A stretch of 54,032 nt of DNA from Granulicella sp. (GTDB lineage: Bacteria > Acidobacteriota > Terriglobia > Terriglobales > Acidobacteriaceae): the NCBI GenBank assembly GCA_027339965.1, contig DAHWNL010000079.1, positions 1-54,032 on the forward strand. The letters are read 5' to 3'. Of the stretch, positions 27,496-27,735 are shown piece by piece (position 1 is the first letter of the stretch; the number at the start of each line of letters is the position of its first letter). Below the pieces are notes generated by a model. That model ran no database searches, had not been told where the DNA came from, and saw only the letters and a program-made list of their open reading frames with translations. A program made the translations under genes and the position numbers.

Positions 27496-27545
27496 CGTTG
27501 ACTCCTTTGTCCAACCAGTGATTGATTCTCTGCATCGCCTGCAAC

Positions 27546-27579
27546 AAAAAAGGCTCACCATCCTCAAGGATCGTGAGCC
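27546..27579 (-). terminator. Intrinsic terminator (attenuator) in the metY leader
   Basis: Minus strand GGCTCACGATCCT-TG-AGGATGGTGAGCC followed by TTTTTTGTT, about 50 nt upstream of the metY start. Confidence 0.85.
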
Positions 27580-27611
27580 GCTCAGAACTTGATCATCTTT
27601 GCTTTAAAGCA

Positions 27612-27698
27612 TCAGACCGTTCCGGCACGCACCCACGAGCGTCGACACATGGACATATCCACGTGCATTCGAGCCACATTGGTGCAGCAGAAGACCAT
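27612..27698 (-). CDS. Putative Met/Cys-rich leader peptide, 28 aa: MVFCCTNVARMHVDMSMCRRSWVRAGTV
   Basis: Hand-translated ATG(27698)..TGA(27612). All 4 Met and 3 Cys fall within the first 18 codons. It ends 32 nt before the terminator upstream of metY-metX. Confidence 0.75.
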   Translation of the reverse strand: MVFCCTNVARMHVDMSMCRRSWVRAGTV

Positions 27699-27705
27699 GC
27701 CCTTG

Positions 27706-27735
27706 AGTATGCTACAGGCCATCCGGCAAATGCAA
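27706..27735 (-). promoter_or_regulatory. Putative sigma70 promoter for the met leader
   Basis: TTGCAT-N18-CATACT (overlapping alternative TAGCAT) on the minus strand; CATACT ends 7 nt before the leader-peptide ATG. Confidence 0.5.

Follow-up and report, generated by a model that had tools for sequence, protein, structure and literature searches.

We have found that a short open reading frame (uORF) rich in Met and Cys codons, with a terminator-like hairpin behind it, precedes the metY-metX operon of a Granulicella sp. genome and is a real, conserved regulatory element, very probably a codon-sensing transcription attenuator of metY-metX. On the basis of sequence and folding models, we put at roughly 0.7 the probability that it would act as a classical ribosome-mediated transcription attenuator sensing Met and, as a second signal, Cys. 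A preliminary description of the window (the whole stretch of DNA analyzed, 54,032 nucleotides) had proposed an attenuator working by stalling and read-through; conservation and folding models support this, and the kind itself had been proposed before for Campylobacter jejuni. The Met branch of leader-peptide attenuation is therefore already in print as a prediction, and the Acidobacteriota are a new lineage for it.

The 28-codon uORF of that description is present on the minus strand (ATG at 27698, TGA ending at 27612) and encodes MVFCCTNVARMHVDMSMCRRSWVRAGTV (Table 1). The four Met and three Cys counted within its first 18 codons are right, but the four Met include the initiator, the internal ones being at codons 11, 15 and 17 and the Cys at codons 4, 5 and 18. 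In several close relatives V13 is replaced by Met. By its Met+Cys fraction the uORF ranks first among the 72 promoter-linked short ORFs of the genome. CATACT was also confirmed 7 nt before the ATG, at 27711-27706, and from this -10 spacing the uORF is probably translated leaderless at the predicted start site; a simple consensus scan of the window for promoters and terminators detected neither the uORF promoter nor the terminator. The metY ribosome-binding site lies 39 nt beyond the U-tract and is not part of the switching helices, and metX, which overlaps the metY stop codon, scores below the TIGR01392 cut-off. A Cys-rich ORF in the +1 frame (27679-27593) was rejected for having no promoter-adjacent start, and its frame has 2 ATG across 66 leaders. 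In the surroundings, a LacI-family regulator gene (23850-24863, minus strand) follows metX after 200 nt, in the same orientation. Upstream of the uORF promoter, 27823-28344 (minus strand) is apparently a degenerate J-domain-like gene copy. This frame had no Pfam or NCBIfam match; its counterpart at L019 contains HPD, which we take to be the J-domain motif, and ends in AINEAYCLLRS, the window retaining the tail only.

Table 1. Features of the metY-metX leader region in the window.
Feature	Position	Strand	Basis
metX, homoserine O-acetyltransferase	25064..26176	-	PRK00175, 361 bits (cut-off 331)
metY, O-acetylhomoserine sulfhydrylase / cysteine synthase family	26173..27495	-	TIGR01326, 667 bits (cut-off 495)
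metY ribosome-binding site AAGGAG	27502..27507	-	sequence
Predicted intrinsic terminator; 5' arm 27578-27571 common to the antiterminator	27546..27579	-	folding, covariation
Predicted upper antiterminator stem (CGGAAC/GUUCUG, UGAU/AUCA), capped by a small hairpin	27583..27624	-	MFE folds
Met/Cys-rich uORF (metL-like leader peptide), 28 codons	27612..27698	-	sequence and conservation
Predicted protector (1:2) helix, nt 13-18 with nt 66-72	27627..27686	-	MFE folds
Predicted antiterminator 5' strand, codons 21-23	27631..27638	-	folding
Control-codon cluster M11-H-V-D-M15-S-M17-C18	27645..27668	-	sequence; position histogram of relatives
Predicted -10 box CATACT, 7 nt 5' of the uORF ATG	27706..27711	-	sequence and conserved spacing
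Predicted -35 box TTGCAT, 18 nt upstream of the -10	27730..27735	-	sequence

We have compared 70 close metY loci (MetY identity 73-100%), which are not independent of each other. The search for Met/Cys-rich uORFs in relatives, suggested as a check in the preliminary description, found them at 67 of the 70: 64 complete and directly before metY, one cut by a contig end and two relocated before hom-metY-metX. At L044 and L112 the uORF is absent and at L047 it is frameshifted; L054, L017 and L122, matches without a 5' end, were left out of the counts. The L047 copy keeps promoter, start, MCLC codons and terminator while its frame shifts with no nearby stop, by degeneration or assembly error. The 64 complete uORFs are 26-35 codons long, with a consensus core MAMCMCM at codons 12-18, and the stretch 5' of the core varies freely. 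With the leader ATG picked by distance from the promoter (three were picked by hand), the spacer from the -10 to the ATG is 6-7 nt in 50 of the 64; the other 14, most of them early-branching copies, have 8-13 nt. Most relatives have a TTGACA- or TTGCAT-like box 16-19 nt 5' of the -10, and the L048 leader has a stretch resembling a Shine-Dalgarno sequence. At L045 and L120 the leader is kept at the operon head, where hom precedes metY; ahead of hom-metY-metX, L045 (1486-1599) and L175 have a 37-codon leader with a core MSMHMC or MGMHMC, a terminator and a -10-like box about 13 nt away. Among 44 loci of the same class with MetY of about 60% identity, a Met/Cys leader no farther than 480 nt away was found at L158 only; many of the others are internal to operons, and the 11 distant metY paralogues inspected lie inside other operons. 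Close metY was present in only 5 of 36 other genomes drawn from the genus, so the operon is patchy.

One of the records, L063, belongs to the Chloroflexota and led to a second group, matched in 34 of 151 genomes of its class. An MCM or MMxM uORF, a conserved hairpin and a U-rich tail were found at 28 of the 29 loci examined (L232 was dropped from the locus and footprint counts), and in nine of these leaders an MMxM cluster has no Cys inside. The sets of 66 leaders used below comprise the 64 complete ones, L063 and L158.

The hairpin with a U-tract claimed as terminator folds at 27579-27552, followed by the U-tract at 27551-27546, with -20.3 kcal/mol. A hairpin with a U-rich tail comes after all 66 leaders (the one picked at L104 was wrong, the right one being visible), and over 63 leaders 91.9% of the cells are paired. 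Covariation of both helices, another of the suggested checks, was positive for the terminator, with two-sided changes at 9 of 12 pairs, some of which reflect register slides of the upper stem, and only modest for the antiterminator. The latter was claimed as an 8-bp helix with 2 G-U pairs, and such a helix is predicted between UCGUGGGU (27638-27631) and GCUCACGA (27578-27571). With L104 excluded from the duplex and footprint sets for its wrong terminator pick (n=65), 61 of 65 leaders have the best partner of the terminator 5' arm in the 3' portion of their uORF, starting near nt 59-61 in most. Two clades have distinct antiterminator strands, GUGGGU and GGACCCG, each matched to its own arm. One clade's strand pairs at -20.7 kcal/mol with its own arm vs -14.3 with that of the other clade, and GUGGG-type strands show hardly any preference (-17.9 vs -17.1). 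In the two clades 91% and 90% of the cells of the lower antiterminator helix, which we selected from the same sequences, are paired, vs 23-54% in slid structures, with two-sided change at only 1 of 7 and 1 of 10 pairs. Dinucleotide shuffles were beaten at p<=0.05 by only 20 of the 65 duplexes and were not beaten by the duplex of the window (z -0.53, p 0.28), so that support for the latter comes from the relatives. The case for the predicted antiterminator thus comes chiefly from the conservation of its position and pairing rather than from strong covariation. Just past the stop codon, the small cap hairpin (27611-27600) reads UGCU-UUAA-AGCA in the window and UGCG-CUAG-CGCA in close relatives, a double change from G-C to U-A; it is 77% paired over the 63 leaders and 97% in one clade, and might possibly be a polymerase pause site.

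Footprint-constrained folding had also been put forward as a check, and in it the structure switches just past the control codons. Nascent RNAs ending at the terminator loop were folded with the ribosome moved along one codon at a time, its footprint being assumed to span 12 nt from the P site. Sequestration of the 5' arm averaged 0.75 with the ribosome on codons 9-14 vs 0.24 at the stop, and was higher at the former in 64 of the 65 leaders. The arm was released 1-3 codons past the last Met in 47 of 61 leaders and before it in 4 (the 61 exclude L099 and L121, with a plateau below 0.4, and L035 and L050, with no internal Met). This release point shifts along with indels: a last Met at codon 20 goes with release at 22-23, and in L028, L037 and L118, with the last Met at 16, release is at 17. 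Among the Chloroflexota the position of the last Met varies between codons 10 and 32, and the model releases the arm one codon later in 19 of 27 leaders (a count that leaves out the duplicate L227 and L218, which has no leader, and in which L214, one of the 19, is mis-anchored and uninformative). In the window the minimum free energy structure has the claimed 8-bp antiterminator with the ribosome on C5, M11, M17 or C18; at W22 the arm is free. Without a ribosome, or with it still at the start, the protector helix appears and masks part of the antiterminator strand, a feature that is not general in the family. In the full-length RNA of the window at equilibrium the terminator folds even with the ribosome on M17, so that switching has to be under kinetic control, the accepted view of classical attenuators.

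From the conserved -35/-10 spacing, transcription would start at or next to the uORF AUG and translation would begin leaderless. With plentiful Met-tRNA and Cys-tRNA the ribosome would pass codon 18 and cover UCGUGGGU, freeing the terminator 5' arm, and in the model transcription would stop at 27546. Under shortage of Met or Cys the ribosome would stall at codons 11-18 (or 4-5) and leave UCGUGGGU exposed; this strand could then pair with the 5' arm before the 3' arm exists and, given kinetic trapping, let the polymerase enter metY-metX. Three metatranscriptomes of the same study gave only short pieces of 85-95% identity inside metY, not covering the leader, and are uninformative either way.

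The codon content of the leaders indicates what would be sensed. Over the 66 leaders 12.8% of the residues are Met and 8.9% Cys, whereas the long ORFs of the genome have 1.9% and 1.0%. Between codons 2 and 22 ATG occurs 217 times in frame vs 2 and 18 times in the other frames. TGY triplets number 155 in the +1 frame vs 166 in that of the uORF, and since the two are about equal the Cys signal may be partly a by-product of ATG-TGY repeats. Tandem Met is nearly absent (MM 3, MxM 139), a scarcity that is probably mutational, due to hexamer repeats, and that we do not count as evidence. Met is the stronger case as the sensed signal by the position of the codons around the release point, 199 Met codons falling before and 8 after it, with 129 and 30 for Cys. 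Of the dual Met+Cys sensor in the preliminary description, the Met part is accordingly the clearer one, and Cys sensing, though probable, is less certain: Cys4 and Cys5 are almost limited to the subclade of the window and also pair in the 5' protector helix, and Cys18 lies at the edge of the sensing window.

These data bear directly on the alternative that the attenuator senses Met only, the Cys codons being passengers of ATG-TGY hexamer repeats and RNA pairing. It would account for Met following the switch point better than Cys, for the pairing of Cys4 and Cys5 in the protector, for the residues between Mets in the subclade of the window (H, D, P, S, T and V) and for the nine Chloroflexota clusters with no internal Cys. 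However, over all leaders the residue flanked by two Mets is most often Cys (62 of 139), and both Cys codons are used (TGC 90, TGT 76). Besides, the cluster lacks an internal Met in L035 and L050, which have 2-3 Cys, and L031 and L032 have 1 Met and 2 Cys; the four belong to one subclade and all keep the terminator and metX, which argues for selection on Cys codons. We consider sensing of Met only unlikely. In our MetY tree, a quick version, this subclade (L031, L032, L035, L050 and L112) has leaders that are Cys-dominant or absent. L050, labelled Acetobacteraceae, nests among Acidobacteriaceae, which could be due to transfer or mis-binning. As MetY uses sulfide and its family includes cysteine synthases, a sulfur signal would be plausible; neither cysK nor cysE, both present in the genome, is preceded by a leader of this kind.

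A metabolite (SAM, a thiol or a metal) could also make the nascent peptide arrest its ribosome, with no waiting for a charged tRNA, much as tryptophan does through TnaC. The conservation of C-terminal residues within clades (WVRAGTV; GPVR..ERRMR; RPR..EDG) would agree with this, but these residues differ across clades and coincide with paired RNA strands, and in the six closest relatives of the window the conservation is at the nucleotide level. Met and Cys are the only residues common to the clades, and the leader had no Pfam match. A ribosome arrested close to the stop would, in the model, mask the antiterminator and bring about termination; this might suit a SAM-off switch, though not the Met cluster. 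We regard peptide arrest as quite improbable. Control of the terminator by a riboswitch of unclassified type that binds SAM or SAH, the ORF being incidental, is hardly credible, for although SAM-I holds the same position in other lineages and the leader of the window folds better than its shuffles (z -3.5), there was no Rfam match in the window or in 7 loci with Met/Cys leaders, the RNA sequence ahead of the control cluster shows no conservation, the Met codons are frame-specific and the predicted 5' end of the RNA sits at the AUG.

Methionine genes are usually controlled by SAM riboswitches, T-boxes or repressors. The preliminary description had seen neither SAM-I nor T-box, and in line with it Rfam gave 0 matches up to E=5 over 26500-29000. 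In the genome of the window (98.9% complete) we found neither SAM-I (RF00162), present in 3 of 14 control genomes, nor a MetJ gene (PF01340). At the equivalent position SAM-I appears in other lineages (L059, L068, L176 and L177). It heads the operon in both of the two loci followed upstream in a sister lineage of Acidobacteriota, L176 (1536-1642) and L177 (3862-3972), from another family of the class, where it is followed by a threonine-synthase-like gene (by eye) and then metY. Eight further short upstream stretches, from loci with MetY of about 60% identity, had no Rfam match.

The attenuator that we prefer meets a difficulty at initiation. Trp-type attenuators terminate when leader translation cannot start, according to the accessible part of the source (PMC1183508). 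In a Met sensor this would be the wrong outcome, because Met shortage should block the start of the leader too. When folded with no ribosome the antiterminator was kept in 42 of 65 leaders (Chloroflexota 23 of 27), 12 of the 65 fell below 0.25, and the window gave an ambiguous ensemble value of 0.52. A protector is predicted, for example, in L005 and L041 and not in L032 and L048. We propose, tentatively and with somewhat less than even confidence, that leaderless Met/Cys attenuators may be an unrecognised cross-phylum class replacing SAM-I before metY. Being mostly protector-less, they would solve the initiator problem with an antiterminator that forms by default (an argument from equilibrium folding only) and is shut off only by a ribosome passing the last Met. 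Sensing would be retuned by codon swaps, with Met+Cys in most, Cys dominant in one Acidobacteriaceae subclade and Met only in one Chloroflexota subclade.

We have also searched for similar leaders elsewhere. The exact codon pattern of MAMCM gave 8 matches in 401 genomes of the phylum, 3 of them known leaders and 5 by chance, in or opposite coding regions, and no second regulated gene came from this query. In the genome of the window cysK, the transsulfuration pair of contig C41 and metH were found to lack a Met/Cys uORF with a terminator, and trpE, leuA and ilvB to lack a cognate leader. A genome-wide scan for terminators with uORFs gave no other convincing attenuator; a Leu-rich ORF on contig C14 was rejected for preceding a broken, by eye apparently transposase-like frame. 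Contigs C44 and C77 of the same genome (G000) carry near-identical leuA and ilvB loci, by duplication or strain mixture, each leuA with a similar divergent gene upstream. metH (G000:C69:21493-25226) is in two adjacent frames, covering model positions 2-325 and 326-1181, a split gene or a frameshift.

This would give a function to an acidobacterial attenuator; according to a survey of 2010, in the part available, almost none of those in Acidobacteria had one (PMC2965389). In the literature that we searched, which covers subscription papers little, we found no account of such an attenuator from either Acidobacteriota or Chloroflexota, nor any Met leader attenuator tested for function, and Met leader peptides appeared as annotations only. 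With some 95 natural variants from two phyla, whose helices and codon positions are explicit, three points become testable: whether a stalled ribosome can signal Met despite the need for fMet-tRNA at initiation, whether Met and Cys are integrated by a single leader, and in what way one sensing specificity is exchanged for another.

The nearest known system is in C. jejuni, where attenuation by MetL has been proposed before metY (cj1727c)-metA and a short RNA ends behind MetL (PMC3847290, accessible part); its translation start is supported by TIS profiling (PMC11955535, likewise in part). Both leaders are short uORFs with Met and Cys codons before the same enzyme gene. MetL is unlike ours in having 20 aa, a Shine-Dalgarno sequence, 2 internal Met and a single Cys, and as far as the available text of these papers goes it is limited to three Campylobacter species, with no antiterminator, Cys role or starvation test described; by eye there is no sequence likeness to the uORF of the window. 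Streptomyces lividans has a leaderless metL of 29 aa in which Cys and Met alternate near the end (PMC8079986), but it precedes the transporter genes metNIQ and, in the portion accessible, is an RNA-seq annotation with no typical intrinsic terminator. The putative leaderless leader of Deinococcus deserti (PMC4007540) precedes methionine-tRNA ligase and is annotated from RNA-seq only in what the source makes available. In mycobacteria, leaderless sORFs with polycysteine precede sulfur-metabolism genes (bioRxiv 10.1101/834739; PMC1262725; both in part). These share with our leader the Cys codons and a leaderless uORF, which is a prediction for ours, but they have Cys only, and the system tested is, from the available text, translational, hiding a Shine-Dalgarno sequence with no terminator (bioRxiv 10.1101/834739), whereas the window has a predicted terminator and control codons unpaired with the ribosome-binding site in the minimum free energy structure.

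SAM-I (RF00162) has the same position and target elsewhere but senses SAM directly and needs no translation. Leaders of thrA in Pasteurellales are reportedly predicted to contain Met codons. The likeness to trpL, hisL, thrL and ilvL is in the control codons, the antiterminator overlapping an intrinsic terminator and the footprint geometry, and with thrL, which senses both Thr and Ile, also in the alternating codons for two amino acids. Unlike the trpL type, the metY leaders have a start predicted to be leaderless, Met and Cys as the signal, and a 1:2 protector, giving termination without translation, predicted in a minority of them (the 12 of 65 below 0.25).
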